DNA of 39,032 bases from Candidatus Babeliales bacterium. GTDB taxonomy: Bacteria; Babelota; Babeliae; Babelales; Vermiphilaceae. Numbering within the stretch: the stretch's first letter is position 1; each line of letters starts with the position of its first letter. The stretch covers positions 1-39,032 of the forward strand of contig JBIOKB010000003.1 in NCBI GenBank assembly GCA_044451405.1. Reading direction: 5' to 3'. This document shows, piece after piece, positions 2,226-18,120 of the stretch. The notes under the pieces were generated by a model, which worked only from the letters and a program-made list of their open reading frames with translations, had not been told where the DNA came from and made no database searches. The translations under genes were made by a program, and so were the position numbers.

Positions 2226-2299
2226 GAACGTAGTGAAGTGTCGTTCTCTTCTGGCGTATGAGCCTCGCCACCTCAGACGTATTCAAGTCTCGTCAACTT
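2226..2299 (+). ncRNA. Cis-regulatory leader RNA: three tandem mini-pseudoknots
   Basis: Three units NNCG-TA...T-CGNN with different but complementary stems. Each loop 4-mer is complementary to the 4-mer just 3' of its stem. Confidence 0.6.
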
Positions 2300-2343
2300 A
2301 AATTTGTTGTTTGTATTTACATACACCTATTTAAGGAAAAACT

Positions 2344-2580
2344 TTGGCTATAACAACTACAAGTACGTTGCCTGCTCCAGTGCAACAAAGCTTTAGCTAC
2401 AAGCTATTATCCGTTCCTGTTCCTAATATGATTCACAAAATACCGGCAATGAAAAAGAATATGCCGCGTAATGGTGGTACAACGCTAAGAATGCGTCGTT
2501 ACAATCCATTGAATACTGCAATGGTTCCATTAGGGAATGCTGGTGTTACTCCGCCAGCGCAGAATTTAACTGCCGTGGAT
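2344..2580 (+). CDS. Major capsid protein (N4-gp56-like), exon 1
   Basis: TTG start after AAGGA. MP.NGGTTLRMRRY.PL motif typical of N4-gp56-family capsids. Joins in frame to 2961 (…LTAVD|IDAKISFYG…). Confidence 0.85.
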
Positions 2581-2960
2581 AGACTTTATGTCCACGTTAA
2601 ATCTTCTCTAATAGACTTGGAAACCGAAGTAGTTTTTAACTAACCGGCAACAAGGGGCAAGATTATGGAATTTAAAGAACCATTTGTATGTGATAGTTGT
2701 GATTTTAAGATTACTCAATTGATTAGTAATTATAAATTCAATAGACAAGCAATGGTTAAAAGAGTTTGCGATTTTCAATCAGATAGATGTTTTTATGAAT
2801 TTATTGATTGGATTAAGAACAATTTCCATACTCAGCCTGAACGTAGCAAGCGAGAAGACCTCGAAAGAGGATGCGGTGCTCTGAACACGGCGGATAACGT
2901 CGTGAGGGATAAGTAGAGAAAGTCCCCGCCTAGAAATAGGTCACAAAAGTAACAGAATTG
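2581..2960 (+). mobile_element. Group I self-splicing intron (380 nt) in major capsid gene
   Basis: Exon ends in T and intron ends in G. P1 CGTGGAT/GTCCACG has a U.G pair at the splice site. P3 TCTTCTC(2602)/GAGAAGA(2852), P8 CCTC-GAAA-GAGG, P7 AGCA/TGCT, P9 CACGGCG/CGTCGTG. Removal gives a continuous 315-aa ORF. Confidence 0.9.
2665..2916 (+). CDS. Intron-internal small ORF of unknown function, possibly a remnant
   Basis: Starts in the P6 extension (TATGGAA 2664/TTCCATA 2824 stem) and runs into the ribozyme core. CxxC present; no homing-endonuclease motif seen. Confidence 0.3.
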   Translation: MEFKEPFVCDSCDFKITQLISNYKFNRQAMVKRVCDFQSDRCFYEFIDWIKNNFHTQPERSKREDLERGCGALNTADNVVRDK

Positions 2961-3671
2961 ATAGATGCAAAAATTTCATTTTACGGGACATACGTCCAGC
3001 TCAATGAACAGGTAACATTACAAAATCAAGATCCAGTTTTGAATGAATGCGCAGCACGTCTAGGAGTGTCTTTACGACAAACCGAAGATCAGCTAACTCG
3101 CGATATGCTCGCAGCCACCGCTTCTTTCATCAACTGTGTTGCTGGATTTAACGGAGATAATCCTACTGAAATTACACGCGGAGATATTAATAACGTAGTG
3201 CGTACATTATTGAACAATAATGCCTACACAATTATGGATAATATCGAGGGTGAAGATAAGTTCGGTACAGCTCCGGTTCGTGATGCTTATTTTGCATTAG
3301 CATCAACCAACTTAACGGCGAATCTTGATAACGTAGCTGGATTCATACACAAAAACCAATATCCCGCTCCCAATGAGGCTTTACGAAGCGAATGGGGCAG
3401 CGCAGGAAATTTGCGATTCTTAGTTTCATCGATTGGATCGCAGACTTCGCAAGCATCATCTCTCGGAGCAACGGTCTACAATATCTTCTGTGTTGGTATG
3501 GAAGCTTATGCATGTATTGAACAAGATGGATACAGCGCAAGCTTTATTTATCGTCCACCAATATATGACGGTCCATTAGCTCTTAATGCTTCAGTTGGAT
3601 ATAAATTCGCCGAAGTGCCAAGAATAACCAATGATCAATGGGTAATTAATTTACGCGCAACATTGGCTTAA
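2961..3671 (+). CDS. Major capsid protein (N4-gp56-like), exon 2
   Basis: YGTYVQLNEQV…DPVL…EWGSAGNLRF…GPLALNASVGYKF resembles N4-gp56-type capsid core. No independent RBS at 2958. Confidence 0.85.
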   Translation: MDAKISFYGTYVQLNEQVTLQNQDPVLNECAARLGVSLRQTEDQLTRDMLAATASFINCVAGFNGDNPTEITRGDINNVVRTLLNNNAYTIMDNIEGEDKFGTAPVRDAYFALASTNLTANLDNVAGFIHKNQYPAPNEALRSEWGSAGNLRFLVSSIGSQTSQASSLGATVYNIFCVGMEAYACIEQDGYSASFIYRPPIYDGPLALNASVGYKFAEVPRITNDQWVINLRATLA

Positions 3672-3695
3672 TATTTCTATTAGGAGAACTATAAC

Positions 3696-4925
3696 ATGGA
3701 CGGAACTATATTAGGACAAGGTACGTTTACCGCGTCTTCTTTCGGACTAGCAAACCCGAACCCGGGAAATGCTGAACAATCCAATGCCGTACAAACCATT
3801 ATTCAGATTCCATCTGGTGCTGATTGGTTGCGGGTATTTAACTACACCCAATTTGGTGTGGCTGGTTGGGCTGGTGCAGCATATTTTAATGGAACTGCAA
3901 ATGCTGATGTTGGTGTAGAATTTTGGTGGCAACGTGGTATGGCTGCTGGAACTGGTATCGTTAAATATAAAGCTGCTGCAACAGCAGTCTTATCTGGCGA
4001 TACATTAGCATCTGGTGGTTTCACCCTTTACGATCCATCAGGAACTTCAACAGGTGCTCAGCCATTATTGAGTGCTCCGGTAGCAACAACTGCTTCTACA
4101 AACGTAACGCGTCCTATAGTAAGCACCGGTAATACTGCTGGTGTATCAGTAGGTACTGTTGTACGTCTATATGGCACAGCTCAAACAGATGTGAATGGTG
4201 TTGATTTTGTAGTTGGTGCCGTGACTGCTAATACAAGCTTCACGCTCTTAACTGCTTCTAATGCTTTAGCAACTGCTCCTGGCGCAATTGGTGGTGCTGG
4301 ATTCTATAGCATTGTCTATAACGGAAATAGCCAGCTCTTTTATCCACGTCGTCGTACGATCGTGAATATATCACAAGCTGCTAATGCTCAAGTTGGTACT
4401 TCAGTTGCTCATGGATTAACAGTAGGACAAGAAGTTCGCTTCAACATCCCATCTGTTTCTGGCATGACACAATTGAATGCAGATCCATTGAACAACTACT
4501 TCCCAAGTAACTCATTAGTGCCCGCAATTGTTATGAGTGTTGTGGATGACTATAACTTCACGATCAACATCAATACAACGGCATATACTGCATTTACCTA
4601 TCCAACCATTGCACAACAACCAAGTTCATTCCCTATCGTCGTGCCAATTGGTGAAGATACTGCAACATCATTGTCTTCAGCTTCTGCTCAAGTGCCAATG
4701 ATTGGTGGTCAACAAATCTTTAACACAAACAGCCAAATACTCGCTGATTCAACTGTTAACACTGGTTACTTAGGAATGATCTTAGGTATTGGTGGCCTTG
4801 GTATTGAAGCAGCTGCCGTGCCATTAATTGGGCCTGCTGGGTCTATTGCATGGTCTGCTGGAAATGCGCCAACAGGTGACATCTTGTATTGGGTTGCTGG
4901 TAAATCAACATTTGGCGGTCTTTAG
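3696..4925 (+). CDS. Virion structural/decoration protein with FCCH-like beta repeats
   Basis: Gly/Ala/Thr-rich, IVNISQAANAQV.TSVAHGL.VGQEV motif, directly after capsid gene, AGGAG RBS. Confidence 0.6.
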   Translation: MDGTILGQGTFTASSFGLANPNPGNAEQSNAVQTIIQIPSGADWLRVFNYTQFGVAGWAGAAYFNGTANADVGVEFWWQRGMAAGTGIVKYKAAATAVLSGDTLASGGFTLYDPSGTSTGAQPLLSAPVATTASTNVTRPIVSTGNTAGVSVGTVVRLYGTAQTDVNGVDFVVGAVTANTSFTLLTASNALATAPGAIGGAGFYSIVYNGNSQLFYPRRRTIVNISQAANAQVGTSVAHGLTVGQEVRFNIPSVSGMTQLNADPLNNYFPSNSLVPAIVMSVVDDYNFTININTTAYTAFTYPTIAQQPSSFPIVVPIGEDTATSLSSASAQVPMIGGQQIFNTNSQILADSTVNTGYLGMILGIGGLGIEAAAVPLIGPAGSIAWSAGNAPTGDILYWVAGKSTFGGL

Positions 4926-4934
4926 TAATTAAAT

Positions 4935-4952
4935 AGGGGGCTTCGGCCCCCT
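4935..4952 (+). terminator. GC hairpin with C(UUCG)G tetraloop; terminator or mRNA stabiliser after head genes
   Basis: AGGGGGC-TTCG-GCCCCCT. Confidence 0.65.
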
Positions 4953-4966
4953 TCTATAGGAGAGCT

Positions 4967-5407
4967 ATGGAAACAGAATTAAAACCACTTGATCTTACAC
5001 ACAATGGGAAAAGAGAAGATACCCAAGAACCAACTAAGAAATCTAAGAAGTTGAATTTAAAACAACTTCGGGAAAAGCACGCTAAACCAGTGCGTGGGAT
5101 ATTCCGTTACCACGAATGTCCAGGTGGCCTCATGAAATTTTCTTTCATGGAATTTAAAGAAGATGGCGTGAAAGATTATGCATTACAAGATGGCGAAGTG
5201 TATACCATACCACTTGGTGTTGCTCTTCATCTGAATAAGAACGTTGCGTACCCAGAGTATGACTACTTCAAGACCGAAGACAAGATGAAGAATACGTTTC
5301 AAGTCGCGCGTAAAGTGCGTCGTGTGAGTTTTCAGTCTTTGGAATTCATTGATGAAGAAGAGTTTAATTCACCAGATCGCATCTTGCAGGTTACTTCCGC
5401 ATTCTAG
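4967..5407 (+). CDS. Hypothetical phage protein (head-tail region)
   Basis: 146-aa ORF with AGGAG RBS, in operon. Confidence 0.7.
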   Translation: METELKPLDLTHNGKREDTQEPTKKSKKLNLKQLREKHAKPVRGIFRYHECPGGLMKFSFMEFKEDGVKDYALQDGEVYTIPLGVALHLNKNVAYPEYDYFKTEDKMKNTFQVARKVRRVSFQSLEFIDEEEFNSPDRILQVTSAF

Positions 5408-5427
5408 CTCAAAAAAGGAGAGTAGAG

Positions 5428-5796
5428 ATGTCTACCTGTTACGCGCAACCAAATCCTATATTTCAACCGGCAATGCGCATCATTACTGCTATTACTAATG
5501 GCAATCCTGCTACGGTAACAACAAGTTTCGCGCATCAGTATATAAGTGGAACATTGGTTCGCTTAGATATCCCACCCGCAGATGGTATGCCAGAGGCAGA
5601 TCAATTTGTAGGTCCTATTACCGTAACAGGAACCACTACCTTTACTCTCCCGTTAGATACTACCACCTTCACACCTTTTGCAATTCCTGTATCGCCACTT
5701 TCTCAAATAAATACCTGCGCGCAAGTAGTCCCTATAGGTGAGATAACGCCGATTTTAGATGCGGCAGTTCAAAACGTTTTACCGTTTAAAGCATAG
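5428..5796 (+). CDS. Small structural protein with FCCH-like domain
   Basis: ITAITNGNPATVTTSFAH…G..VRL motif, similar to the repeat in 3696..4925. Confidence 0.6.
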   Translation: MSTCYAQPNPIFQPAMRIITAITNGNPATVTTSFAHQYISGTLVRLDIPPADGMPEADQFVGPITVTGTTTFTLPLDTTTFTPFAIPVSPLSQINTCAQVVPIGEITPILDAAVQNVLPFKA

Positions 5797-5804
5797 GAAA
5801 TACG

Positions 5805-6809
5805 ATGGCAGATACATTACAAGGAATACAAACAAAAGTGCGACGCTTAACGCGTAGCATGTCAGAATCAGTGTTATCAACCGTAGATTTAAATGACTAT
5901 ATCAATACATTCGTTTTGTATGATATGCCTGAGCATCTCCGCTTATTTGATTTAAGAACGCAATTCACGTTCTACTGTAATCCCTATCAGGATGTATACG
6001 TGACTGACACTACACTCAACGTAAACGATCCGCTCTACAACTTTAAAAATTTATATATATCCGTTCATCCTCCGCTCTATATAGCCGGTTTCGAAGCAAT
6101 GTATACGCAATCACGTGAGCAACTATTTGGCGTCTATCCTGGCATTAATTTTATTCAATCAATTGGCGTTGCGGGCAATGGTATTACGCAGACCTTTACA
6201 GGAGTTGTGCCTAATTCCCCATTCCTACAAAATCAGGTGCTCTTTTCATCAATAGATACTATGAACAACGGCCTTTCATTAATTGACGTTCCTACTTCAA
6301 ATAGCGCAGGCAACCTTGTAGTACCCGGAACTGCTACCGTCCAAGGAACGGTGAATTATGTAACCGGAGCATTCACCCTCACATTCCCGACTGCTCCAGG
6401 ATCTGGTCAGCCAATCAATAGCCAAACAGTGCCTTATGTTCCACAGATTCCATTGGCTATGCTCTACTATGATGACAAATTCACCCTCCGTCCGGTTCCT
6501 GATCAGCCATATAGAATTAATTTTGAAGTATTTAAACGACCAACTCAGCTCATAGCATCAAATCAGGTTCCTGAATTGGAACAATGGTGGCAATACATAG
6601 CCTATGGTGCAGCTAAAAAAGTATTAGAAGATCGTATGGATCTTGATAGCGTCGCACTCATATTACCTGAGTTTTTAAAGCAACAAAATTTAGTGCTCCG
6701 CAGAACACTTATTCAATATGCAAATCAACGTGTGGCAACTATATACACCGAGCAGACTTCTGTTGGATATAACAACTGGGGTATAGGCGGTGCTGGTGGT
6801 AATTTATAA
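5805..6809 (+). CDS. Putative head-tail adaptor (tail tubular A-like)
   Basis: L..I.TKVRRLT…L.DYIN N-terminus and L.PVPDQ.Y…P.L.QWWQYIAYGAA C-terminus fit podovirus adaptors; position. Confidence 0.55.
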   Translation: MADTLQGIQTKVRRLTRSMSESVLSTVDLNDYINTFVLYDMPEHLRLFDLRTQFTFYCNPYQDVYVTDTTLNVNDPLYNFKNLYISVHPPLYIAGFEAMYTQSREQLFGVYPGINFIQSIGVAGNGITQTFTGVVPNSPFLQNQVLFSSIDTMNNGLSLIDVPTSNSAGNLVVPGTATVQGTVNYVTGAFTLTFPTAPGSGQPINSQTVPYVPQIPLAMLYYDDKFTLRPVPDQPYRINFEVFKRPTQLIASNQVPELEQWWQYIAYGAAKKVLEDRMDLDSVALILPEFLKQQNLVLRRTLIQYANQRVATIYTEQTSVGYNNWGIGGAGGNL

Positions 6810-6825
6810 TAATTAAGGAACAGTA

Positions 6826-7383
6826 ATGGCATATTTAAATAATATTCCCCAGCTAACAGATCAACTCTCGCAATCACAACCAGCGATTCTGGGAAACTTT
6901 GGTGAAATTGGTACATGGGTGGCGGTAAACCACGTGACATTCGACTCAGGGGCAAATACAGGAAAGCATTTCTTTGTTGAATTTCCTGTACCTGGAGTAA
7001 CACCGGTCACAGCAGCTGGTGAAGTTGGCTTATATTCTCAAACATCCACATTCACTGCACAACCAGAACTTGTATTTTCAAAGCAAGGTGGTACCGGAGT
7101 TTATGAGTTCACCTCTTCTGGTCAAGTGGTTAATGGTGGTTGGGTACGTCATCCATCAGGCATCTTGATGAAATGGGGCACAGGAGCACCAGGAGGCCCA
7201 GGAAACTTAGCAATTAACTTTCCTGTTGCAGCAACTAATCCTGCCTTTGTAACTGCTTATGTGGCATTTGTAACACCAACAAGTGCTGGCATAATAACCT
7301 ACGTAAATGCTCTGACTAATTTAACATTGACGGTAAACGCATCAGCCGCAGGAAACTTTAACTATTTAGTTATAGGAATCTAA
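6826..7383 (+). CDS. Short tail-fibre-like structural protein
   Basis: GW.RHPSGILMKWG…INFP…F motif of fibre distal domains. Confidence 0.55.
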   Translation: MAYLNNIPQLTDQLSQSQPAILGNFGEIGTWVAVNHVTFDSGANTGKHFFVEFPVPGVTPVTAAGEVGLYSQTSTFTAQPELVFSKQGGTGVYEFTSSGQVVNGGWVRHPSGILMKWGTGAPGGPGNLAINFPVAATNPAFVTAYVAFVTPTSAGIITYVNALTNLTLTVNASAAGNFNYLVIGI

Positions 7384-9636
7384 ATGGCATACGATCGTTT
7401 TATTATCGCTCCATTTGATACGGGTCTTCAGACTGATGTTCGACCTTGGTTAGTGCCAGACGACGCATTCGTTTCATTAAAAAATGCCTATGTATTTCGT
7501 GGACGTGTGCGTAAACGATTTGGATCTTTGTATACCGGTAATGGCGCGCAGAATGTCTATACAGCACAGCTCTTTTCTCGCTTAGCAGTGCTCTTAGGTA
7601 CTACGAGTGGCGCAGGTGTTTTAGCAGGTAACGTTCCAGGAAATGTATTTGGTATAGGACAAGCATTCTCAGTTGGCACTGAAATGTTCACGGTCTATCA
7701 AACAGGAAATCCTGCCAATATGCTCACAACGGGCGCATCTACGGTATATACCTATGATACAACAACGGGTGCCTATGTAATTCATGGTGCAGCGCATAAT
7801 ACACCAGTATATTTCTATCCTGCAACTCCTGTTATGGGACTTACTCAATATGAAACGGGTGCTATAAACGCACATCCTGCCTATGCATTTGATACGCAAT
7901 TTGCCTATGTATATACAGGAAGTTTCTGGGAACAATCTCAAGGAGCAGCTACTCCAACATGGCAAGGCAGCAATTCAAATTTCTTCTGGGTAGCTAATTG
8001 GCGTGGTATATCAACAGCAATAACCAATATGTTTGTTACCAACTTTAATGCTACTGTTCCTGTACCAGCAGGAACAGATGATCCTGTGTATACCTTTGAT
8101 GGTACTACTTGGAGTAATTTTTCTGCTGTAATGATCTTTAATACGGCAGGCGATTTTGTTCAAACAGCACTCATGATCGTTCCCTTTAAAGATCGTTTAG
8201 TACTGCTTAACACTATTGAACAGAAAGCAGATAATTCAGCTAATACCCAATATAAAAATAGAGCACGCTTTTGCCACAATGGTTCTCCCTTTGCTACTAA
8301 TGCATGGCTTGAACCTAATACTTCATTTGGTGGTGCCAATGCTGATGGTGCTGGCTGGCTTGACGCTGTAACAGAAGAAGCGATTACCAGCTGTGAGTTC
8401 ATTAAGGATAGATTAATCGTTTATTTTGAACGATCTACGTGGGAATTAGCCTATACCGGAAACCAAGTCTTACCGTTTGTATGGCAGAAGATAAATACAG
8501 AACTTGGAAGTGAAGCAACTTTCAGTTCCATTCCTTTTGATAAAGTTATTTTAACTATGGGAACGACTGGCGTGCATGCTTGTAATGGCAGCAACGTAGA
8601 AAGAATCGACAATAAAATTCCTGACCAAGTATTTGATATTAATGATATTAATATGGGAGTTCAGCGTGTTGCTGGTATTCGTGATTATTTTACTGAATTA
8701 GTTTATTGGACCTTCCCATCGAATCAAGATACAACCGTCTTTCCAAACCAAATCCTGGTCTATAACTATAAAACGGGTTCATGGGCGCTCAACGATGACG
8801 TCATTACTGCCTGGGGCTATTTTGATCAGCAACAAACAGATACATGGGTAGATTCTGTATTTACCTGGGAAAATGCTGATATGACCTGGCAGAGTTCAAA
8901 CATTGAAGCGCAAGTACGTCAGATTATTGCCGGTAATCAAGAAGGTTACATATTTATAATATCGCCTGATTATGCTGACAACGCACCGGTTATGCAGATC
9001 AATAACATGACGGTGAGTGGTGCCTATGTAAATCTCTCTATAACAAATCATACACTGAGTGCTAACGACTTTATTACTATACAGTTTCCACAAGGCATAA
9101 CCTACGTTCCGCCTGCTATTCCTAATATTGTAATAACCAAAATTAATAAAGTTATTGATGCCAATACAGTTAAAGTAGGGCCATTAAATTTTACGGGAAT
9201 CTATACAGGCGGCGGCACCGTAAGCCGCGTATCCAACATCAATATTCTATCTAAGCAATGGAATCCCTATGTTGATCAAGGACGCAACGTCTACATCGCC
9301 AAGATAGATTTTGGTGTATTGAATACGGGTGGGCAAGTAACCGTTGATTATTACACTTCATCATCTAATTTATCTGAAGTAACTGAAGGGACCAATACAG
9401 GAGCAATCTTAGGAACATCAGTTCTGGAAACTGGACCATACACGCTTGTTCCTGTTCCTCTAGAATTCTATCAACAACGTCTATGGCATCCAATTTACTT
9501 CCAATCTGATGGAGAGTTTATTCAGATAAATCTGTATTGGAGCGATGCACAGATGCTTAATGGCGAATGCTTCTTTGATTTCCAATTAGAAGGACTTGTG
9601 CTTCATTCAATCCCTGTTTCTCAAAGGTTGCAATAA
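7384..9636 (+). CDS. Putative tail nozzle / DNA stabilisation protein (tubular B or P22 gp10-like)
   Basis: 750 aa, beta-rich, N-terminal L.NAYVFRGRVRKRFG motif, located between adaptor and ejection genes. Confidence 0.6.
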   Translation: MAYDRFIIAPFDTGLQTDVRPWLVPDDAFVSLKNAYVFRGRVRKRFGSLYTGNGAQNVYTAQLFSRLAVLLGTTSGAGVLAGNVPGNVFGIGQAFSVGTEMFTVYQTGNPANMLTTGASTVYTYDTTTGAYVIHGAAHNTPVYFYPATPVMGLTQYETGAINAHPAYAFDTQFAYVYTGSFWEQSQGAATPTWQGSNSNFFWVANWRGISTAITNMFVTNFNATVPVPAGTDDPVYTFDGTTWSNFSAVMIFNTAGDFVQTALMIVPFKDRLVLLNTIEQKADNSANTQYKNRARFCHNGSPFATNAWLEPNTSFGGANADGAGWLDAVTEEAITSCEFIKDRLIVYFERSTWELAYTGNQVLPFVWQKINTELGSEATFSSIPFDKVILTMGTTGVHACNGSNVERIDNKIPDQVFDINDINMGVQRVAGIRDYFTELVYWTFPSNQDTTVFPNQILVYNYKTGSWALNDDVITAWGYFDQQQTDTWVDSVFTWENADMTWQSSNIEAQVRQIIAGNQEGYIFIISPDYADNAPVMQINNMTVSGAYVNLSITNHTLSANDFITIQFPQGITYVPPAIPNIVITKINKVIDANTVKVGPLNFTGIYTGGGTVSRVSNINILSKQWNPYVDQGRNVYIAKIDFGVLNTGGQVTVDYYTSSSNLSEVTEGTNTGAILGTSVLETGPYTLVPVPLEFYQQRLWHPIYFQSDGEFIQINLYWSDAQMLNGECFFDFQLEGLVLHSIPVSQRLQ

Positions 9637-10181
9637 TGGCAGAGTTTGTATCATCTACAGTTGGATCATTCATACCAACGACGAATATTTGGGACGTGTC
9701 CGAACTGATGGAAGTTGATGTTAATAGTCCACAATTTAAGGAACTTCTTATTCGGTTGTATCAGAACATTAACAATATGGCATTGGTGCTTAATGTAAAA
9801 GACACAGGTATCTACAACAATAGTCAATTTATTAATGGGCAGACGTTTTTTCCTAATCCAACCTTGACTTCAGCATCGACCACTTTTCCTGCAATGCGAC
9901 AAGCCTATAGGTTGGCTGTTATTTTTGGTGCTTTGCCCAATACAGGAGCAAAATCAGTTGCTCATGGAATAACAATTACCAGTTCAACAACATTTACTCG
10001 TATATATGGTGAAGCAAGCGATACAACAGGAAATAATTATATCCCACTGCCGTATGCGAGTCCTACATTGGTGAACAATATACAGTTGGACGTATCAGCA
10101 ACTAATGTGACTGTCACAACAGGATCAAACAGAACGAATTTTAATGAATGCAAAATAATTTTAGAGTGGTTATCTAGTTAA
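9636..10181 (+). CDS. Virion structural protein
   Basis: Translationally coupled (TAATG); beta-rich C-terminus with SVAHGI motif. Confidence 0.6.
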   Translation: MAEFVSSTVGSFIPTTNIWDVSELMEVDVNSPQFKELLIRLYQNINNMALVLNVKDTGIYNNSQFINGQTFFPNPTLTSASTTFPAMRQAYRLAVIFGALPNTGAKSVAHGITITSSTTFTRIYGEASDTTGNNYIPLPYASPTLVNNIQLDVSATNVTVTTGSNRTNFNECKIILEWLSS

Positions 10182-10191
10182 GGAGAATAAG

Positions 10192-10869
10192 ATGCCTTGT
10201 AAACATGGCGTTTGCAGCCGGAAGTCAAAAAAATCACGTGGTGGCGTTACCGTACAACCACAAATGGTTAATCCTGTTGCTACTAATCCACAAATTCCCC
10301 AAATAGGGCAACAAGCTGGTGGTATTCAACAACCAAATCAATTTACCACGCCATCACAAGGTAAAGTAAATAAGCGTAGTGGAGTCCGTAGTTTTTTTGC
10401 GGGTGATCCTGCATATAGTATGGTGACTACACCTTACACGCCAGATCAACAAAATATACTCAATTGGCTCGCGCAAAGTGGACAACAAGGATTACAAGGA
10501 TTAGGAAATCAAGGATTTGATTTTGGACCATTGCAACAACAAGCTCAATCACAATTTTATTCTGAAACGGTCCCAACTCTCGCTGAAAGATTCACCGCTA
10601 TGGGTGGTGGTCAACGATCTTCTGCATTTGAATCTGCTATAGGGCGTGCTGGTGCTGGTCTTAAAGAAAATCTTGCTGCATTAAAAGCGCAATATGATTA
10701 TGGTAATCAACAAAATCAGCAAGCTAATTTCATGAATAGATTGCAAATGGGTCTTCGTCCACAATATGAAAATGCATTTGTGCCTTCAACTGGTGGTATA
10801 TTCCATGGTGCAGCATCCGCAGTAGGTAAAGCTGTTCCATTAGCTGCTGGCGCATACTTTGGTGGTTAA
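10192..10869 (+). CDS. Putative DNA ejection protein
   Basis: Gln/Gly/Ala-rich with hydrophobic Gly/Ala C-terminus; AAGGAG RBS; position. Confidence 0.55.
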   Translation: MPCKHGVCSRKSKKSRGGVTVQPQMVNPVATNPQIPQIGQQAGGIQQPNQFTTPSQGKVNKRSGVRSFFAGDPAYSMVTTPYTPDQQNILNWLAQSGQQGLQGLGNQGFDFGPLQQQAQSQFYSETVPTLAERFTAMGGGQRSSAFESAIGRAGAGLKENLAALKAQYDYGNQQNQQANFMNRLQMGLRPQYENAFVPSTGGIFHGAASAVGKAVPLAAGAYFGG

Positions 10870-10884
10870 TTTAAAGGAGATACG

Positions 10885-12225
10885 ATGCCTCAAATAATCA
10901 ATAACGTTGGCCGTGCTGCAATGTTTGGCCAACAATTTGGACAAGGACTAGGTGAAGGTCTATCTGCGCTTGCAGAATATAAATTACAGCAAGTACAGCA
11001 ACGAAATAATGTTAATCGTCTTGCTGATGTATATAAATCTCTTGGTGCTGATGAGAATACTGCACGAGGATTAGCAGCATTACCGCAAGAAATACAAAAA
11101 TCTTATTTAGAACGTGGCGGTGCTGCAACATGGGGTCAAGGAGGACAACAAGTAGCACAATCAGCACAGCAATCGGGTGTCTATGCACCATCAGCCTTAG
11201 AGCAACCACAACAACAGCAATTTGCACCTCCGTCAGAAACACAAGCAATACGACAACGTTTATCTGCGTTGAACCCTAATCAACCTGAGCAAGAACAAGA
11301 AGCATTGCTCAACAAGATTCGTTCACCAGAGCAACGACGACAAGCATTCCGTGAACAAGGGATTGGATTACCAGAACAACAACCATCTGCTGCGCAATTC
11401 GGACGCGGTATTCAACAAGCGCCACCACAACAAGCCCCTCAAGCAGCCCCAGGGGGCGCCCCAGCGGCTCCACAAAAAGGTAGTATCGGTGAAGTTCTTG
11501 CTCGTCCGTCCTTCCATGAACAGCAATTGAATCGTCGTCATGAAGAAGCGATGGGGCAAAAAGAACGGCACTTTCAAGCAAAAGAACAAAAAGAACTCCG
11601 CAAGGAAAGCGAAGGATTCAGAAAAGAAGTGCTTGATATTCATCATGCTGATATTGCTGATAGAGCTCGGTTGAAGAAGATTCTTTCTATCGATAAAAAG
11701 AATAACGTTATCAATCCTCAGTTATATGCAACACTTAAAGAACATGGATTTGCTACTGGAAGTGTATTAAATGCTGATACCCAAGAACTTGCAAAACTTT
11801 CAACTGACATGTTCACTAATTTTAAGAAGATGTTTCCACGTGGTACTAACATTGATGCGCAGATCTTTGAACAACGTATTCCTTCTCTAATGAATAGTCG
11901 TGAAGGCCGTGAACGTGTTATTGGAAATATGCTCAAACTTACTGATCTTAACGAGAAAATCTATGATGAGATGCAAAACGTCATCAAGGATAATGGCGGC
12001 AATGTACCTCCTCTCTTTCAGGAAGAAGTATATAAGCGCGTAGATCCGTATGTGAAAGATTGGGAACAAGACTTTGTTAATATGTCTCAAGAAAATGCTC
12101 CTCAAGTAGGACAAGGGTTTGATAAGTTGCCTCCTGCGAATTCATTGCCTAAAAACACCGAACTATTTAATGATGTGACTGGTAAATATTTTGTTACCAA
12201 TGGTAAAAATTGGAGGGTCGTATAA
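10885..12225 (+). CDS. Putative DNA ejection protein
   Basis: FGQQFGQGLGEGL N-terminus, Gln-rich helical body; AAGGAG RBS. Confidence 0.55.
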   Translation: MPQIINNVGRAAMFGQQFGQGLGEGLSALAEYKLQQVQQRNNVNRLADVYKSLGADENTARGLAALPQEIQKSYLERGGAATWGQGGQQVAQSAQQSGVYAPSALEQPQQQQFAPPSETQAIRQRLSALNPNQPEQEQEALLNKIRSPEQRRQAFREQGIGLPEQQPSAAQFGRGIQQAPPQQAPQAAPGGAPAAPQKGSIGEVLARPSFHEQQLNRRHEEAMGQKERHFQAKEQKELRKESEGFRKEVLDIHHADIADRARLKKILSIDKKNNVINPQLYATLKEHGFATGSVLNADTQELAKLSTDMFTNFKKMFPRGTNIDAQIFEQRIPSLMNSREGRERVIGNMLKLTDLNEKIYDEMQNVIKDNGGNVPPLFQEEVYKRVDPYVKDWEQDFVNMSQENAPQVGQGFDKLPPANSLPKNTELFNDVTGKYFVTNGKNWRVV

Positions 12226-13517
12226 TGCCTTTTAAGATTACTAAACTTGGTGAGCAGCCAGTTGAACAACAATATGATTCTTCTAATGAAAATATTGGCC
12301 AGACCATTGGTCGTAATATAGCGCGATTGCCCGTTACTGCTGCAAAGACAATAGGATCAATTCCTGGTGAAGCTGAAGCAACTGTGCGTAATCTAACTAA
12401 AAGTCAGCATGGACAGATTGCACAAGCTCTTGGTATTCCACAAGAATTACATGCACAATTAGAAACTCCTGGGCTATTATCGCATGACCATGTATTTCCT
12501 ACGTATGAGGAACTTGGTAAGGGCATAAAAGAAAAAGCCCCTTATTTAGCACCACAAGGACCTATAGAAGAACAGGTAGATAGCGCTGTATCGCGTGTTA
12601 TAGATCTTATGACAGGTGGCGTAAAAGCTGGTCGCGCAATAGGAGCAACCGCAGCAGGTAAATTAGGTAAATATTATACTCAATCATATACGGGATCAGA
12701 AGAAGCTGGAGATGCGGTTGATGTAGGAACTACATTATTAACTCTTACTGGTGGTCGTAAACCATTAGAGGCTAAAAATAATGCACTCTTTGATGAAGCG
12801 CGTTCATTTTTACCTGAAGAAGCCAAATTTAAAGCGCCAGTATTACGTGGCCAAATTGAACATGAAATAAAAAAATTAAAACGAAGCGATATGACAAGTA
12901 AATCATTTGTAGAAGATCGCTTAAAAGAATTAAAAAAAATTGTTGGCCCAGCTGGTACTGTTGATATAAATGAATTGTGGAGTCGTAAGAAAGAACTTAA
13001 TGATCATTTTAAGACGCGTGATTTACCCGTTGGGGCAGAAAAAGAACTCATTAAAATGATTGATTGGCTTAATGATGTATTAAAACGTGAATATGGAACT
13101 ACAAATCCGCGTTTTTCTAAAGCTCTTGATGAAGCTGATAAATTTCACCGCGGATTGCGTGAGGGAAGCAAGTTAAAGAAGTTCTTTGAGAAGAATATCA
13201 ACTTTGAGAATATAGCTCATCCCGTGGTTTTAGGTGCTTTAGGATTTAAAGCAGTAACACCTATACAAGCTGCAAAAGCAGGGGCTGGATTACTTGCAGG
13301 TAAAGAAATTGTATATTTAACAGAAGCTCTTGCCCGCAGTAAAGAAGTGCGTAAAGAATGGTTTAGTTTATTGCGCTCTGGTGCTAAAGGAAGCGCGATA
13401 GCAGCAAATAGATACGCTAAAAAGCTCTCTGATAGTATGCAGCAAGAATTCCCAATTGAACAACCAGCAGTTGAGGAAGCGCGTGGTCGTTTTAGAATTA
13501 CTCGTATGGGTTCTTAG
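12225..13517 (+). CDS. Putative DNA ejection protein (start revised to ATG 12225)
   Basis: TAATG coupling with the previous gene; helical with Gly/Ala hydrophobic stretches. Confidence 0.55.
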   Translation: MPFKITKLGEQPVEQQYDSSNENIGQTIGRNIARLPVTAAKTIGSIPGEAEATVRNLTKSQHGQIAQALGIPQELHAQLETPGLLSHDHVFPTYEELGKGIKEKAPYLAPQGPIEEQVDSAVSRVIDLMTGGVKAGRAIGATAAGKLGKYYTQSYTGSEEAGDAVDVGTTLLTLTGGRKPLEAKNNALFDEARSFLPEEAKFKAPVLRGQIEHEIKKLKRSDMTSKSFVEDRLKELKKIVGPAGTVDINELWSRKKELNDHFKTRDLPVGAEKELIKMIDWLNDVLKREYGTTNPRFSKALDEADKFHRGLREGSKLKKFFEKNINFENIAHPVVLGALGFKAVTPIQAAKAGAGLLAGKEIVYLTEALARSKEVRKEWFSLLRSGAKGSAIAANRYAKKLSDSMQQEFPIEQPAVEEARGRFRITRMGS

Positions 13518-13596
13518 TAGTTTCTGTTCTTCCAAACCACCACCCTGTAAATCCTACCCATACCATCCAAAATATAACTAATCCTATAGGTCCCAT
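13498..13596 (-). CDS. 32-aa membrane peptide (not in ORF track)
   Basis: MGPIGLVIFWMVWVGFTGWWFGRTETTKNPYE; GGAGG RBS upstream. Confidence 0.55.
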   Translation of the reverse strand: MGPIGLVIFWMVWVGFTGWWFGRTETTKNPYE

Positions 13597-13597
13597 A

Positions 13598-13702
13598 TTA
13601 AACCTCCCATTTTAGTACAACTACCACTAATACAACTACTCCTAATATTACCCATATAACATAGGGCATCTGTATCCCTGAATTATAAAAATCTGGTGGC
13701 AT
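13598..13702 (-). CDS. 34-aa membrane peptide (not in ORF track)
   Basis: MPPDFYNSGIQMPYVIWVILGVVVLVVVVLKWEV; GGGGGA upstream; tightly packed with neighbours. Confidence 0.5.
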   Translation of the reverse strand: MPPDFYNSGIQMPYVIWVILGVVVLVVVVLKWEV

Positions 13703-13710
13703 ATATCCCC

Positions 13711-13878
13711 CTAATCGTATTGCTTGTCTCTAGATATCTGGTTAAGCACTGCTTGTAAAATATAGTCCTTTATTGAAATTCTCTTATGAGCACATCGCAC
13801 TTTGAGGTCGTAGTGAACTTGCTCAGGTAACGTAAATATAAATCTCTTATGTTTTTTGTGTTTCTTAGGTTCATCCAT
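13711..13878 (-). CDS. 55-aa ribbon-helix-helix (Arc/CopG-like) DNA-binding protein (not in ORF track)
   Basis: KRFIFTLPEQVHYDLKVRCAHKRISIKDYILQAV matches the RHH strand-helix-helix pattern. Confidence 0.7.
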   Translation of the reverse strand: MDEPKKHKKHKRFIFTLPEQVHYDLKVRCAHKRISIKDYILQAVLNQISRDKQYD

Positions 13879-13883
13879 CTTTC

Positions 13884-14333
13884 TTACCTGCAGCTATTTA
13901 TGTCCTCTGCGGCTAACTTACAGAAAACCTTTAATAATTTATTATATTTTTCATTATTTTCTAATCCTTCTAACGTTTCAGATGCTTCGGAAAAAAAACC
14001 AGTAACAGCAACCCATGTCAGGGAAGAGAAAAAACACTTAAATCTAAAATGAGGATTATCTTTTTTTATAAATATAAACAAATCAACAAGAAAAAATAAT
14101 AAACTAAATCGTACGTTTTCTTCCTGAAACTTATCTGATTCCATTAACGCTAATATAATAGAACCAACGCTTCTTTCTTGAATATCTTCTAATGTTTCAT
14201 CTTTCAATAATTCATAGGATTTACATAATTCAAAAGCTAAAGCGCATTTAGTTTTTTTCTCATATTCTGTAGCAGGTAGAGCTTCTATAAAATAACTTAC
14301 CCAAAAATCGATTTCTCTATGCTCAAGTATCAT
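13884..14333 (-). CDS. Hypothetical AT-rich protein
   Basis: 149 aa, AAGGA RBS, between HTH and RHH genes. Confidence 0.6.
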   Translation of the reverse strand: MILEHREIDFWVSYFIEALPATEYEKKTKCALAFELCKSYELLKDETLEDIQERSVGSIILALMESDKFQEENVRFSLLFFLVDLFIFIKKDNPHFRFKCFFSSLTWVAVTGFFSEASETLEGLENNEKYNKLLKVFCKLAAEDINSCR

Positions 14334-14349
14334 ATTTTTCCTTATTAAT

Positions 14350-14538
14350 TTATTGATCTGGTTGAATAGAATTTAATAGTTCTTCTAAGTCTGATTTCTT
14401 GTATAAGCGATATCTATTAAAAGGGTGCCGCCATGATTTTAGTTTACGCGCTCGCTCCCAATTTCTTAGAGTATTAGCAGTTACCCCCAAAAAGGCAGCT
14501 GCTTCTTCTATCATCATAAAGTCATCAAATTTGTTCAT
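14350..14538 (-). CDS. MerR/excisionase-type HTH DNA-binding protein
   Basis: M.IEEAAAFLGVTANTLRNWER…R.PFNRYRLY..SDL. Confidence 0.85.
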   Translation of the reverse strand: MNKFDDFMMIEEAAAFLGVTANTLRNWERARKLKSWRHPFNRYRLYKKSDLEELLNSIQPDQ

Positions 14539-14687
14539 ATAAGCCCTTTCGTAGGAATTTTTCCTATGACTATATAGGAATTACAAAAGGTTACAATGGC
14601 GATCTCTTTTTTCTTTGTTCTTCCATCCACTCCTGGTCGTCATTCTTAGATATAAAGATATCACAAACTTTAAAAATAGCAAGTTTT

Positions 14688-14716
14688 AAGACTGCGAAAG
14701 TTGAGGCTTATAGAAT
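14688..14716 (+). promoter_or_regulatory. Putative late promoter for tail-fibre operon
   Basis: GCGAAAGTTGAGGCTTA-TAGAAT aligns with GCGAAAATTGAGGTTCA-TACAAT at 35187. Confidence 0.6.
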
Positions 14717-14751
14717 GAGGCAAGTAATGAACTAAAAAAATAGGAGACATT

Positions 14752-15936
14752 ATGTCAGTTCAACAATACCCAATAGTGGATTATGGCTTTACCCAAGCCC
14801 TTCAATCCGTCTTTCCTGCCCCTATAGTATCCAACCGTGCCCCTACAACAGCCGATAAGGCTCAGATAGGGACAGTATGGATTCAACCCGTAAATACTTC
14901 AGGAGTAGCTCAAAATGCTGCCTGGATTCTTACCTCAATTATAAGTAACTTAGCAAATTGGGCTAACGTATCTGGCGGCAATGGATCATTTTTAAATATC
15001 CTCCTTCCGTATACAACTGCTTCTGTCGGCAACATAGAATTTGGTGGTATTTCTTCATTTAAGATTCCTGAATCTAGTTCTGTATATATAGGACAAGCAG
15101 CAGGTAATACTTCTAATACCGGTACTAATAACGTTGCGCTCGGTACGTTAGCATTAACTGATGTTACAACTGGTCATGATAATATTTCTGTTGGTTATGA
15201 AGCAGGAGCTCATCTAACTACAGGTACTAATAATACTTTTGTAGGATCTTTAGCGGGAAATGCTATTACATCTGCATCTAATAACGTCGCTATTGGTCTT
15301 AATTCTTTAGCCAGTGCTACTACATCTCCTGGCAATACTATTGTAGGTGCTGGATCAGGTCTTCTTATTTCTACAGGTACTGGTGATAATACCAGCGTAG
15401 GATTTGTAAATCTTCAAAGCGTTACAACAGGTGCTAGTAATATCGCCCTTGGTACTAGTGTTTTAAATTTTATAACAACAGGTTCTAGTAATATAGCCAT
15501 TGGTAACAGCGCAGGATCTGCATTAGTAACAGGTACAGAGCACGGAAATATCTACCTCAATGATATTGGAGTGAATGCTGAAGTATCTACTATGCGACTA
15601 ACGTCTAATGGTGCTGCATTTATTACAACAACAGGATCGACGCTTTCTTTAAATACAACGGGTACTGGAGCAGTAAGTATCGGTAATACAACAGGTAATG
15701 TTGGTATTACAGGTAATGCTACCATTACTACGGGTAATATGGTGTTAGCAACTGCAGCTACGTTTGTACAACTTCCTGGACCAATTAAGATTATGTCTGG
15801 AGCAGGTGCACCAGCTGCTGGATTGGCAGCGGAAGCTGGTGACCTGTACATCAATACTACAGGATCTACCACAACAACACGTCTTTATATAGCAACTGGA
15901 GCAGGCGCTTGGACATACATAGCATCAAATGCGTAA
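14752..15936 (+). CDS. Tail fibre/spike with beta-roll (adhesin-like) repeats
   Basis: ~14-residue TTG..N.A(L/I)G..A repeats; N-terminal RAPTTADK…GTVW and C-terminal GAPAA…GDLYINT motifs. Confidence 0.8.
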   Translation: MSVQQYPIVDYGFTQALQSVFPAPIVSNRAPTTADKAQIGTVWIQPVNTSGVAQNAAWILTSIISNLANWANVSGGNGSFLNILLPYTTASVGNIEFGGISSFKIPESSSVYIGQAAGNTSNTGTNNVALGTLALTDVTTGHDNISVGYEAGAHLTTGTNNTFVGSLAGNAITSASNNVAIGLNSLASATTSPGNTIVGAGSGLLISTGTGDNTSVGFVNLQSVTTGASNIALGTSVLNFITTGSSNIAIGNSAGSALVTGTEHGNIYLNDIGVNAEVSTMRLTSNGAAFITTTGSTLSLNTTGTGAVSIGNTTGNVGITGNATITTGNMVLATAATFVQLPGPIKIMSGAGAPAAGLAAEAGDLYINTTGSTTTTRLYIATGAGAWTYIASNA

Positions 15937-15955
15937 TTAACTAACAATCAAAATA

Positions 15956-15992
15956 CCTCCCCGCTTGCTTTGCTAGGGTTAAAGCGGGGAGG
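15956..15992. terminator. Stem-loop after first fibre gene
   Basis: CCTCCCCGCTT/AAGCGGGGAGG. Confidence 0.5.
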
Positions 15993-16026
15993 ATTCACTA
16001 TCTAACCCTTGTCTGGAGAGAAGAGA

Positions 16027-16248: not shown

Positions 16249-16269
16249 AATAAAATTAGGAGAATAGCA

Positions 16270-16623: not shown

Positions 16624-16653
16624 ATAGTGCGCCTAAGCGCACAAGGAGATGCC

Positions 16654-17124: not shown

Positions 17125-17139
17125 AAAGGAGACTTTACA

Positions 17140-18108: not shown

Positions 18109-18120
18109 AGGAGAGTAGTA

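Follow-up and report, generated by a model that had tools for sequence, protein, structure and literature searches.

An array of small two-helix RNA modules in the capsid gene leader of an uncultured phage clade, a proposed and apparently undescribed switch for capsid protein synthesis

The capsid locus and its leader

The stretch of DNA analyzed here, called the window, comprises 39,032 nt of contig JBIOKB010000003.1 (assembly GCA_044451405.1, Candidatus Babeliales bacterium). Its + strand contains a gene for a major capsid protein of the N4-gp56 type, which is encoded in two blocks. The first block (2344-2580, residues 1-79) was identified by a match to profile positions 22-100 of PHROG 1357, major head protein, and by tblastn against relatives. 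The second block (2961-3671) matches profile positions 106-302 of the same family and is 83-90% identical in relatives. The gene begins with a TTG codon (2344-2346), preceded by the Shine-Dalgarno (SD) sequence AAGGA (2333-2337). An earlier note on this DNA had proposed the TTG as start codon, and the alignment confirms it, as ATG is found at the aligned codon in 109 of 115 distinct relatives. The two coding blocks are separated by a group-I-intron-like insertion of 380 nt (2581-2960) with an ORF of 83 aa (2665-2916), and this site is uninterrupted in 78 of 80 relatives from IMG/VR. The insertion shows a P1-like helix (2575-2580/2590-2595) with U2580.G2590 at the junction, and its last base is G2960. 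A group I core was not matched by Rfam at gathering score in the window, nor at E<=10 over positions 2540-3000.

Upstream of the capsid gene, no ORF of at least 40 aa overlaps positions 2092-2343 on either strand. This region harbors an array of three abutting units at positions 2226-2299 of the + strand, each with the organization S1a-UA..S2a..U-S1b-N-S2b. In unit 1 (2226-2251) the first helix S1 is formed by 2226-2230/2242-2246, followed within the loop by L1 (2231-2234), S2a (2235-2238) and L2 (2239-2241), and downstream of the hairpin by L3 (2247) and S2b (2248-2251). The respective elements of unit 2 (2252-2275) are S1 2252-2256/2266-2270, L1 2257-2258, S2a 2259-2262, L2 2263-2265, L3 2271, and S2b 2272-2275, and those of unit 3, the last unit (2276-2299), are S1 2276-2279/2291-2294, L1 2280-2284, S2a 2285-2288, L2 2289-2290, L3 2295, and S2b 2296-2299. 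A covariance model matches the three units at 2227-2251 (21.3 bits, this unit being a seed sequence), 2253-2275 (21.6 bits), and 2276-2300 (28.3 bits), and the predicted energies of the S1 hairpins are -4.1, -6.4, and -3.7 kcal/mol, respectively. The CG-UA that follows from S1a into the loop and the U-CG that leads into S1b are common to all three units, in agreement with the invariance claimed for them by the earlier note.

A generic unit scan (S1>=4, S2>=4, loop 7-13, L3 0-2) detected 157 single units on the + strand of the window, and the array in the capsid leader is the sole chain of three abutting units. It was recovered at exactly the positions that had been proposed before. When 39-kb sequences were simulated with a first-order Markov model, the longest chain had one unit in 56 of 100 runs and two units in 44, and a chain of three units was never obtained. 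With a stricter scan based on a sequence anchor, neither the window nor the complete assembly of 1.02 Mb yielded a second tandem copy. Tandem Repeats Finder reported no repeat at positions 2100-2400, therefore the units repeat in structure and not in DNA sequence. The nested minimum free energy (MFE) fold of the window's leader is not more stable than that of shuffled sequences (z -0.64).

A putative sigma-70-type promoter (2189-2217, + strand) can be read from the sequence just upstream of the array, with the -35-like motif TTGAAT (2189-2194) and, as -10 candidates, TATTAC (2209-2214) or TACCCT (2212-2217). The predicted -10 box is weak in the window, and a promoter scan reported no promoter ahead of the array; many relatives, however, have clear TATACT/TATAAT boxes. 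The best TATAAT-like hexamer, resembling a sigma-70 -10 box, most often ends 3-7 nt ahead of the first unit in the relatives. As far as the promoter sequences tell, the capsid mRNA therefore probably begins with the array or within a few bases of it.

A conserved module with two covarying helices

Relatives of the N4-gp56-type capsid are encoded on at least 422 IMG/VR contigs. The earlier note had made conservation in related capsid leaders a test of its reading, and between two and five units were indeed parsed in 82 of 115 distinct leaders, while 18 contained one parsed unit and 15 none. Some of the leaders with no or one parsed unit hold variant units that were missed by the parser. By sequence comparison, conservation of the array thus extends over the capsid leaders of a large clade of uncultured phages. 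The array is also present ahead of capsids that are only 47-59% identical in their N-terminal part, as found in an unbiased pattern scan of IMG/VR, in which 80 loci were taken from at least 120 matching stretches. Eighteen of these 80 loci lie ahead of a capsid homologue according to tblastn, and locus L222 seems to be one more example at a greater distance. The remaining loci look like chance matches in coding DNA, e.g., L183 and L239. Among GenBank phages no DNA match was found, and on the protein level only capsids with less than 30% identity were detected. In three of these phages, Pseudoalteromonas phage vB_Pun_Y3, Bacillus phage poppyseed, and Pseudomonas phage Rollin, only 11-33 nt separate the preceding gene from the capsid gene, therefore there is no room for an array. 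The relatives occur in genome bins of many phyla, which we read as binning noise. No spacer-like match links the window to any of the other 88 contigs, and the window has no terminal repeat.

The array is restricted to capsid leaders. Of 80 loci, 59 have strict units in their capsid leaders, 114 in total, whereas 47 single strict units were found outside leaders (580,601 bases, both strands counted). All other clusters of strict units precede capsid genes with unmapped first codons and lie on the same strand as these genes. A search with the covariance model (R1, E<=1) of 42 loci comprising 157,681 bases resulted in 72 matches, all of them on the sense strand and at most 200 nt upstream of a capsid start. 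In five complete relatives of 37-39 kb, four of the five model matches are in the capsid leader; the fifth is weak (E 0.6) and lies elsewhere.

The module has a length of about 25 nt. The S1 hairpin has 4-5 bp with an invariant C-G/G-C top, and its loop of 9-13 nt begins with UA, less often with CA, and ends with U. A purine-rich S2a within the loop pairs over 3-5 nt with a pyrimidine-rich S2b, which is situated 0-2 nt after S1b. The covariation of both helices was analyzed with 150 units, which were picked solely by the anchor CG[U/C]A..UCG from 251 distinct unit windows. In the two-helix structure 76.0% of the cells are paired, compared to 61.1 +/- 0.8% in shuffles (0 of 500 as high), 345 cells are changed on both sides versus 143 after shuffling, and the covariation score is 0.379 versus 0.168. 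When the 3' partners were slid by 1-3 columns, only 30-46% were paired. Changes on both sides affect three of the five S1 pairs and all six S2 pairs. In the core pairs of S2, G-C and A-U are swapped about equally often (53:50 and 61:57), and G.U exceeds U.G (13:2 and 16:1), a bias that indicates a sense-strand RNA. An independent permutation test with 106 units selected by the anchor only gave the same result: S1 has 1.80 outer pairs versus 0.715 after permutation (maximum 0.98 in 1000), and an S2 of at least 4 bp is formed in 72% of the units versus 20% (maximum 33%). The covariation of both stems, which had been noticed among the three units of one genome, thus extends to the homologues, where the complementarity between loop and downstream strand is also kept.

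The strands follow one another in the H-type order S1a-S2a-S1b-S2b, with compensatory changes in both helices. The geometry is less straightforward. L3 comprises 0-2 nt for S1 helices of 4-7 bp and tends to be shorter when S1 is longer (rho -0.43). The parser admitted only 0-2 nt between S1b and S2b, but the slid controls favor the same register. In a classical coaxial H-type pseudoknot L3 would have to lengthen with S1, therefore a full S1 and a full S2 may not coexist. A junction loop of 2-3 nt could permit a non-coaxial fold. Structurally, the module may therefore be an H-type mini-pseudoknot or, if sterics bar both helices from forming together, a two-state toggle.

Two further readings were rejected. 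Against an array of SD mimics, the purine-rich S2a segments are in most cases no SD words. Against a CsrA-type GGA platform, many loops appear to be devoid of GGA when the unit alignment is read by eye.

The last unit and the capsid ribosome-binding site

The MFE fold of the window predicts an anti-SD hairpin at 2297-2335 with an energy of -7.8 kcal/mol. Three nucleotides of its 5' arm (2297-2303) also belong to S2b of unit 3, and its 3' arm (2329-2335) overlaps the first 3 nt of the SD sequence. A corresponding link between the last unit and the ribosome-binding site (RBS) was observed among the relatives. The predicted duplex of the last-unit tail with its own -22 to +6 region has a mean energy of -6.94 kcal/mol, compared to -5.15 kcal/mol for the tails of upstream units (Mann-Whitney p 1e-7) and -5.08 +/- 0.20 kcal/mol for last-unit tails combined with the RBS of other leaders, and none of 300 permutations was as low as the own combination. 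In the MFE folds, at least 4 nt of the tail are paired with the RBS window in 53 of 82 leaders, whereas shuffled tails yielded 24.5 +/- 3.0 (maximum 30), and at least 2 nt of S2b join the helix between tail and RBS in 49 of 82 leaders. The partner in the RBS changes together with the tail, e.g., CUU-AAGG, CCCC-GGGG, and CAU-AUG. S2 has the same length in last units (3.95 bp) and in upstream units (3.94 bp), therefore neither of the two alternative pairings has been lost. Mimicry was not detected, since the RBS window does not contain the exact S2a word of its last unit more often (14 of 82) than is the case for upstream units (26 of 140). When the S2b strands were blocked in the predictions, the unpaired fraction of the SD sequence increased from 0.27 to 0.38 (Wilcoxon p 4e-5), and in the window from 0.17 to 0.40. 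The median gain in accessibility is only 0.03, and of the 47 strongly sequestered leaders only 21 gain at least 0.2. A statistical coupling thus exists between the last-unit tail and its own SD/start region, although not universally, since 29 of 82 leaders have no helix between tail and RBS in the MFE fold. Of the options that had been listed earlier, translational control has therefore received positive support.

We propose that the array is a cis-acting translational switch for capsid synthesis, and we regard this proposal as having an even chance of being correct. In the last module, S2b and the bases following it would alternatively contribute the 5' arm to a helix in which the SD sequence or the start codon is buried. 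Formation of S2 would leave the RBS freer (ON), while opening of S2 would allow the anti-SD helix to close the RBS (OFF). As an isolated hairpin S2 has about 0 kcal/mol, compared to -7.8 kcal/mol for the anti-SD hairpin of the window, and therefore the ON state would need help. The weakness of S2 alone thus suggests that some factor sets the balance between ON and OFF. A small ligand or a protein of either phage or host might take this role, as might tertiary folding that depends on Mg2+ or the kinetics of co-transcriptional folding. The upstream modules would provide cooperativity or protect the 5' end. The only riboswitch-like feature observed is the predicted competition between S2 and the anti-SD helix, which resembles an expression platform. 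A more far-reaching version of the proposal, which we hold only tentatively and consider on balance rather doubtful, is that the arrays constitute a new modular class of sensors. They would have the smallest aptamer-like modules known (about 25 nt), would act as cooperative arrays of 2-5 modules that respond to a small molecule or to a dedicated RNA-binding protein as the signal of an infected cell, and the last module would free the capsid RBS from the anti-SD helix.

Several other functions have to be weighed against the translational switch. The array might be a 5'-terminal stabilizer that shields the abundant capsid mRNA from entry by RppH/RNase E or from the 5'-3' exonuclease RNase J, the hairpin at the RBS being a separate element. 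The arrays of the relatives begin where a transcript driven by the -10 box would start, they are confined to the most highly expressed late gene, their copy number varies from two to five as expected for a bulk barrier, and the leaders that lack a predicted helix between tail and RBS would also fit. A barrier, however, needs neither an invariant C-G/G-C top nor the UA and U at the loop ends nor a covarying second helix at a fixed offset, and the single folds are weak (S1 -3.7 to -6.4 kcal/mol, S2 about 0). In addition, a barrier does not account for the closer match between the last tail and its own RBS, compared to other tails or to the RBS of other leaders, and we judge this function unlikely. 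The better match of the tail would be equally compatible with regulation of the opposite sign, in which a phage protein, e.g., surplus capsid or scaffold, binds the hairpin tops and loops, blocks S2, and frees the anti-SD tail, turning off capsid translation autogenously. Several like sites with few invariant bases (C-G/G-C, UA, U) resemble the reiterated operators of proteins, and T4 gp32 and the P22 scaffolding protein are examples of phage proteins whose own synthesis is controlled after transcription. No RNA-binding protein was found in the window, where most neighboring ORFs have no family match, and the thermodynamics of the window already favor a closed RBS, which makes a repressor seem less necessary than an activator. 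Taken together, a repressor platform appears quite improbable.

Processive antitermination, which the earlier note had also considered, would require that the nascent RNA modifies the RNA polymerase for read-through of the late operon, in the manner of HK022 put. The array is indeed promoter-proximal and heads a run of structural genes on the + strand from 2344 to about 13.5 kb. However, positions 2300-21000 contain 10 terminator-like sites compared to 13.1 +/- 4.0 in shuffles, the one weak site on the + strand lies inside the capsid gene, the coupling to the RBS would be left unexplained, and none of the families contained in Rfam matched. Antitermination is therefore not supported and we consider it very improbable. 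Tandem pseudoknot RNA repeats are a hallmark of type III antitoxins, and phages carry mimics of them, so that a trans-acting or decoy RNA, e.g., a ToxI-like mimic that neutralizes a host abortive-infection nuclease, also comes to mind. But the units are not DNA tandem repeats, and the members of an array differ in sequence. They occupy a fixed place upstream of a single gene, to whose RBS they are tied, and no toxin-like gene is adjacent, which leaves this idea with a very slight probability indeed. Hardly any probability at all is given to reiterated binding sites of a transcription factor on the DNA level (CGTA-N-TCG) or to a chance arrangement. A DNA-binding protein could make use of the conserved CGTA..TCG, which recurs about every 25 bp, but compensatory changes in two helices, the G.U bias of the sense strand, and the absence of three-unit chains from all 100 simulations speak against both.

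Relation to known systems and meaning

The earlier note could not assign the element to a named family and suggested a search of Rfam. In agreement with this, Rfam 15 yielded no match at E<=10 over positions 1800-2800 or at gathering score over the window, and 18 related loci likewise gave no match at E<=1. Among the closest known systems is the preQ1-I riboswitch (RF00522), the smallest aptamer with an H-type pseudoknot. It is also a small module with a first stem of about 5 bp and a second stem of 3-4 bp that involves a 3' tail, it governs access to the SD sequence, and it sometimes occurs in tandem. However, RF00522 does not match the array, its third loop is an A-rich strand of 6-7 nt that lies in the minor groove of S1, compared to 0-2 nt in the array, and the array has other conserved bases (CG-UA ... 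U-CG) and 2-5 units. The preQ1-I riboswitch is associated with genes for the synthesis or transport of queuosine or preQ1, while the array precedes the major capsid gene in every case examined. Furthermore, the preQ1-I pseudoknot itself contains the SD sequence, while that of the array is proposed to compete with the anti-SD arm and would be ON when folded.

Other systems share single features. In the Com-mom system of phage Mu the RBS is locked in a hairpin that is opened by an event just upstream, as proposed for the array, but this event takes place at the site of a zinc-finger protein, and neither a pseudoknot nor tandem modules are involved. The upstream pseudoknot domain of Tobamovirus consists of three abutting small pseudoknots with very short loops, which can stack into a rod; it belongs to the 3' UTR of a plus-strand RNA virus of eukaryotes, is not coupled to an RBS, and has no sequence relationship to the array. 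Phages and plasmids carry type III antitoxin RNAs (ToxI and relatives) as tandem pseudoknot units of about 36 nt, but these are near-identical direct repeats followed by the gene of an endoribonuclease toxin, whereas the array has no DNA repeat and a capsid gene downstream. HK022 put is composed of two stem-loops, in contrast to the 2-5 mini-pseudoknots that an array would form. The leader of T4 gene 32 contains one pseudoknot followed by an unstructured tract and is bound by its own product, a ssDNA-binding protein, while the array is a reiterated module with no known binder. In this leader, as in other autogenous phage operators and as proposed for the array, downstream translation is set by a pseudoknot close to the 5' terminus of the mRNA (PMC10690425).

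Full-text searches of the literature revealed no description of the motif, and the sole possible overlap met is DNAVirus_3698 (PMC10690425). The entries for this unnamed candidate csRNA from IMG/VR give a length of 85 nt, 180 sequences mainly from marine and freshwater sources, 37 copies at most 25 bp upstream of capsid_maj_N4 genes, and only two covarying bases (PMC10690425). About three units would fit into 85 nt. The entries mention no tandem modules, pseudoknots, or coupling to an RBS (PMC10690425). If DNAVirus_3698 should be the same motif, the element has already been catalogued, though not interpreted (PMC10690425).

The array looks like a switch for capsid protein synthesis that apparently has not been described before. 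Structured RNA leaders that control structural genes of phages are poorly charted, and this one is abundant, being present in hundreds of uncultured phage genomes, as well as tiny and modular. The natural compensatory variants of each helix ease mutagenesis and probing, and a second helix that begins 0-2 nt after the first is a geometry that challenges the textbook H-type pseudoknot. On the practical side, the arrays were met only ahead of the capsid gene of this clade in the sequences searched and can serve as a marker, and the array is a compact natural part for the control of an RBS. If an effector exists, the array would be a new ON switch, either riboswitch-like or operated by a protein, and would explain how the timing or dosing of capsid synthesis is achieved in a phage without its own RNA polymerase. 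Should the sensor reading be true, an abundant uncultured clade that relies on host sigma-70-type promoters would possess a post-transcriptional "late" switch.

Tandem two-helix units in the capsid leader

The leader upstream of the major capsid gene contains three tandem units of about 25 nt at 2226-2251, 2252-2275 and 2276-2299, and the sequence and a generic scan agree base for base with the array that an earlier note had placed at 2226-2299. Each unit consists of the 5' strand of the first helix (S1a), a loop that starts with UA, encloses the 5' strand of the second helix (S2a) and ends with U, the 3' strand S1b, one base, and the 3' strand S2b. None of 100 simulated 39-kb Markov sequences contained three units abutting in a chain; the longest chain was one unit in 56 simulations and two in 44. 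A stricter scan of the window and the whole assembly detected no further tandem copy, Tandem Repeats Finder found no DNA repeat at the array, and no ORF of at least 40 aa overlaps 2092-2343.

The first 80 related loci from IMG/VR yielded 56 distinct leaders, most of which have two to five units of the same build. To avoid circularity, units were picked by the anchor CG[T/C]A..TCG alone, which gave 106 units in 43 of the 56 leaders. Pairing of the bases on either side of the anchor extends over 1.80 contiguous positions, compared to 0.715 for permuted partners (maximum 0.98 in 1000), and 72% of the 106 units have a complementarity of at least 4 nt between the loop and the tail, i.e., S2b and the following bases, versus 20% after permutation (maximum 33%). 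Pooling of all loci resulted in 176 leaders, 115 of them distinct, and 96 leaders contributed 251 distinct anchor-only unit windows. The claim that both stems covary was borne out by an alignment of 150 of these 251 windows, on which the two-helix structure was counted: 76.0% of the cells are paired versus 61.1% after shuffling (0 of 500 shuffles reached this value), both sides have changed in 345 versus 143 cells, and the covariation score is 0.379 versus 0.168. Sliding the 3' partners by 1-3 columns reduced pairing to 30-46% for every slide. The C-G and G-C pairs at the top of S1 are invariant, partly via the choice of the anchor, while the lower pairs swap between G-C and A-U. The three core pairs of S2 are about half G-C and half A-U, with S2a nearly always purine and S2b pyrimidine. 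G.U pairs are much more frequent than U.G pairs, and therefore the structure is on the sense strand. The element is real and strongly conserved.

The anatomy was derived from 240 parsed units, with a parser that permitted an L3 (the stretch between S1b and S2b) of 0-2 nt only. S1 is a helix of 4 bp (151 units), 5 bp (70) or 6-7 bp (19), and S1a has a one-base bulge in 55 units. L1 is mostly 3-4 nt long and starts with UA in 200 units, CA in 31 and AA in 9; S2 has 3-5 bp in 224 of the 240; L2 is mostly 2-3 nt with a U at its end; L3, mostly A, is missing from 76 units, a single nucleotide in 98 and 2 nt in 66; and the gap to the next unit is mostly 1-2 nt. Of the 115 distinct leaders, 44 have three parsed units, 32 have two, 18 have one and 15 have none, with 4 leaders reaching four units and 2 reaching five. 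Some leaders with none or one hold variant units missed by the parser, e.g., CCCAA..UGG forms. The S1 hairpins of window units 1, 2 and 3 have predicted energies of -4.1, -6.4 and -3.7 kcal/mol, S2 alone is at about 0 kcal/mol, and nested folding of the window leader is unremarkable. Because the distance from UCG to S2b is nearly constant across units, longer S1 helices go with a shorter L3 (rho -0.43), which is the opposite of what a classical coaxial H-type pseudoknot needs. Three options remain: S2 coexists with just the conserved upper 3-4 bp of S1, both helices fold side by side via a 2-3-nt junction loop, or S1 and S2 alternate.

Phage context and restriction to the capsid leader

The window is the whole of one contig of an assembly of 1.02 Mb and 89 contigs. 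Its gene content reads as that of a tailed phage, with a terminase large subunit (31278-32648), a portal (35313-37370), tail and fibre-like proteins between 3696 and 20265, and Erf, RusA, endonuclease VII and a replication initiator in the right part; no RNA polymerase family was matched among the window ORFs scanned. Two adjacent, overlapping ORFs (22778-23161 and 23158-23718) both match endonuclease VII / HNH-type families and might represent a duplication or one split gene. The phage also has two tRNA genes, one at 34504-34577 with an odd four-base anticodon (aaaa) according to ARAGORN and an Rfam tRNA score of 47.6 bits, and a tRNA-Ile with anticodon AAU at 34746-34818.

The gene downstream of the array has two segments, 2344-2643 and 2958-3671, that match PHROG 1357, 'major head protein', and its relatives are annotated as 'N4-gp56 family major capsid protein' in the source records. 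It is split by a 380-nt insertion (2581-2960), which 78 of the 80 IMG/VR relatives do not have at that point. The insertion has group-I-intron hallmarks (exon 2575-2580 paired with 2590-2595, U.G at the junction, terminal G2960), an Rfam search of it found no intron, and it includes an 83-aa Cys-rich ORF (2665-2916) with no Pfam or PHROG match. The capsid gene is an insertion hotspot in the clade: it is interrupted at loci L021, L028, L083, L084, L086, L087 and L089, by insertions of about 200 to 1100 nt at several different codons, with two in L086 and three or four in L089.

The search of IMG/VR with the second capsid block retrieved at least 422 relatives among 429 pattern matches, of which the best 80 (83-90% identity) were kept. 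With the capsid of L085 (69% identical) as query at least 592 relatives were found, and a search with the capsid protein resulted in 2410 clusters (E<=1e-5). Five relatives are complete genomes of 37-39 kb, four of them with direct terminal repeats. Eight further copies (L082-L089) are in genome bins of very different phyla, labeled Bacteroidota, Actinomycetota, Gemmatimonadales, Parachlamydiaceae, Pseudomonadota and a Nitrososphaeria archaeon. We read this scatter as binning noise, and therefore the bins do not tell the host; bin labels, probably including that of the window's own assembly, say little about it. No spacer-like match was found between the window and the other 88 contigs of the assembly. 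No capsid of a cultured phage in GenBank is more than 30% identical to that of the window, and the three distant cultured relatives compared have no long capsid leader.

Within the 80 IMG/VR loci, 114 strict units, from 59 loci, lie no more than 200 nt ahead of the capsid start, versus 47 elsewhere (580,601 bases, both strands), all singles. Other clusters occur just at L039, L048, L053 and L078, all of them on the capsid strand and ahead of capsid genes with unmapped first codons. A covariance model was built from 34 seed units, including the three window units, which are its top matches in the window, followed by a single further match of 15 bits within the capsid gene. When the model was run on 42 further loci (157,681 bases, E<=1), all 72 matches were on the sense strand and at most 200 nt upstream of the capsid start, and in the five complete genomes four of five matches are in the capsid leader. 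A capsid-blind pattern scan of IMG/VR (80 loci of at least 120 matching stretches) yielded 18 loci that precede a capsid homologue, some just 47-59% identical in the N-terminal part; the others look like chance matches in coding DNA. It is near certain that the array is a structured sense-strand RNA module specific to the capsid leader.

Transcript position and pairing with the ribosome-binding site

In relatives with a correctly parsed first unit, the best TATAAT-like hexamer (TATACT, TATAAT, TATATT) most often ends 3-7 nt before this unit, often with a -35 of TTG type about 17 nt upstream, and therefore the array would begin at or next to +1. The window signals are weaker: TTGAAT (2189-2194) is followed by TATTAC (2209-2214) or TACCCT (2212-2217), so that the predicted -10 before the array has candidates, but weak ones, and a promoter scan of the window listed none upstream of the array. 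Between the upstream plus-strand gene and this putative promoter lies a minus-strand 69-aa ORF (1878-2087), with minus-strand terminator-like hairpins at 2105-2132 and 2146-2165, upstream of its start, an odd site for terminators. Two short contigs from different samples, L054 and L062, have start points that differ by at most one base, about 140 nt before the capsid ATG, and L062 stops shortly after a hairpin that follows the second gene; the window has an equivalent GC-rich palindromic hairpin (4935-4952) after the second late gene (3696-4925). These ends resemble assembled transcripts and hint at a discrete two-gene capsid transcript.

In the window, 2297-2303, including three bases in S2b of unit 3, pairs with 2329-2335 in a predicted hairpin of -7.8 kcal/mol, which covers the first three bases of the Shine-Dalgarno (SD) sequence AAGGA (2333-2337), seven bases before the TTG at 2344. 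Relatives have the same layout with different sequences: tails that contain CUU are opposite SDs of AAGG type, CCCC tails opposite those of GGGG type, and CAU tails opposite the AUG. In 82 leaders with at least two parsed units, the tail of the last, capsid-proximal unit forms a predicted duplex of -6.94 kcal/mol with its own -22..+6 region, compared to -5.15 for upstream tails (p 1e-7) and -5.08 +/- 0.20 with the ribosome-binding sites (RBSs) of other leaders (0 of 300 as low). At least four tail bases are paired to the RBS window in 53 of the 82 MFE folds, versus 24.5 +/- 3.0 for shuffled tails, and at least two S2b bases take part in 49. Blocking S2b raised predicted SD accessibility from 0.27 to 0.38, with a median gain of just 0.03 and a gain of at least 0.2 in 21 of 47 strongly closed leaders. 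The translational control proposed earlier is supported by the match between the last tail and its own RBS. A stricter mimicry test, the presence of the S2a word in the RBS of the 82 leaders, was negative.

Possible functions of the array

Alternatively, the array might be a 5' stabilizer of the capsid mRNA. Its position and variable copy number fit, but the invariant bases, the second helix and the RBS match would be left unexplained, and we regard this as rather unlikely. A repressor platform would be the same circuit as a translational switch with the opposite sign, and appears improbable. The antitermination RNA suggested in the earlier note would have no terminators to overcome, so that little speaks for this role. 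It is harder still to believe in a decoy resembling a type III antitoxin, which fails on repeat identity and context, and duplex-DNA sites or chance, which fail on covariation, are barely conceivable.

The closest working analogies are the preQ1-I-type pseudoknot riboswitch and the activation, as in Com/mom, of an RBS locked in a hairpin. The element does not belong to the preQ1-I family, because it has no match to the model, no A-rich third loop and the wrong gene context. Literature searches found no description of the motif, which the earlier note could not assign to a named family. A catalogue of viral candidate RNAs lists an unnamed 85-nt DNAVirus_3698 upstream of capsid_maj_N4 genes in 37 cases (PMC10690425), which may or may not be the same element; the consulted part of this catalogue describes neither tandem pseudoknots nor RBS coupling for it, and as far as we found the element is without published interpretation.

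The best reading, held with moderate confidence, is a translational switch that acts through the last unit. S2 is equally long in the last and the other units, and therefore both pairings of the tail are maintained, which is what a switch needs. Because S2 alone contributes about 0 kcal/mol and nested folding is unremarkable, a closed RBS is favored unless the pseudoknot is stabilized, and we therefore infer that an activating factor takes part or that the route is a kinetic, co-transcriptional one.
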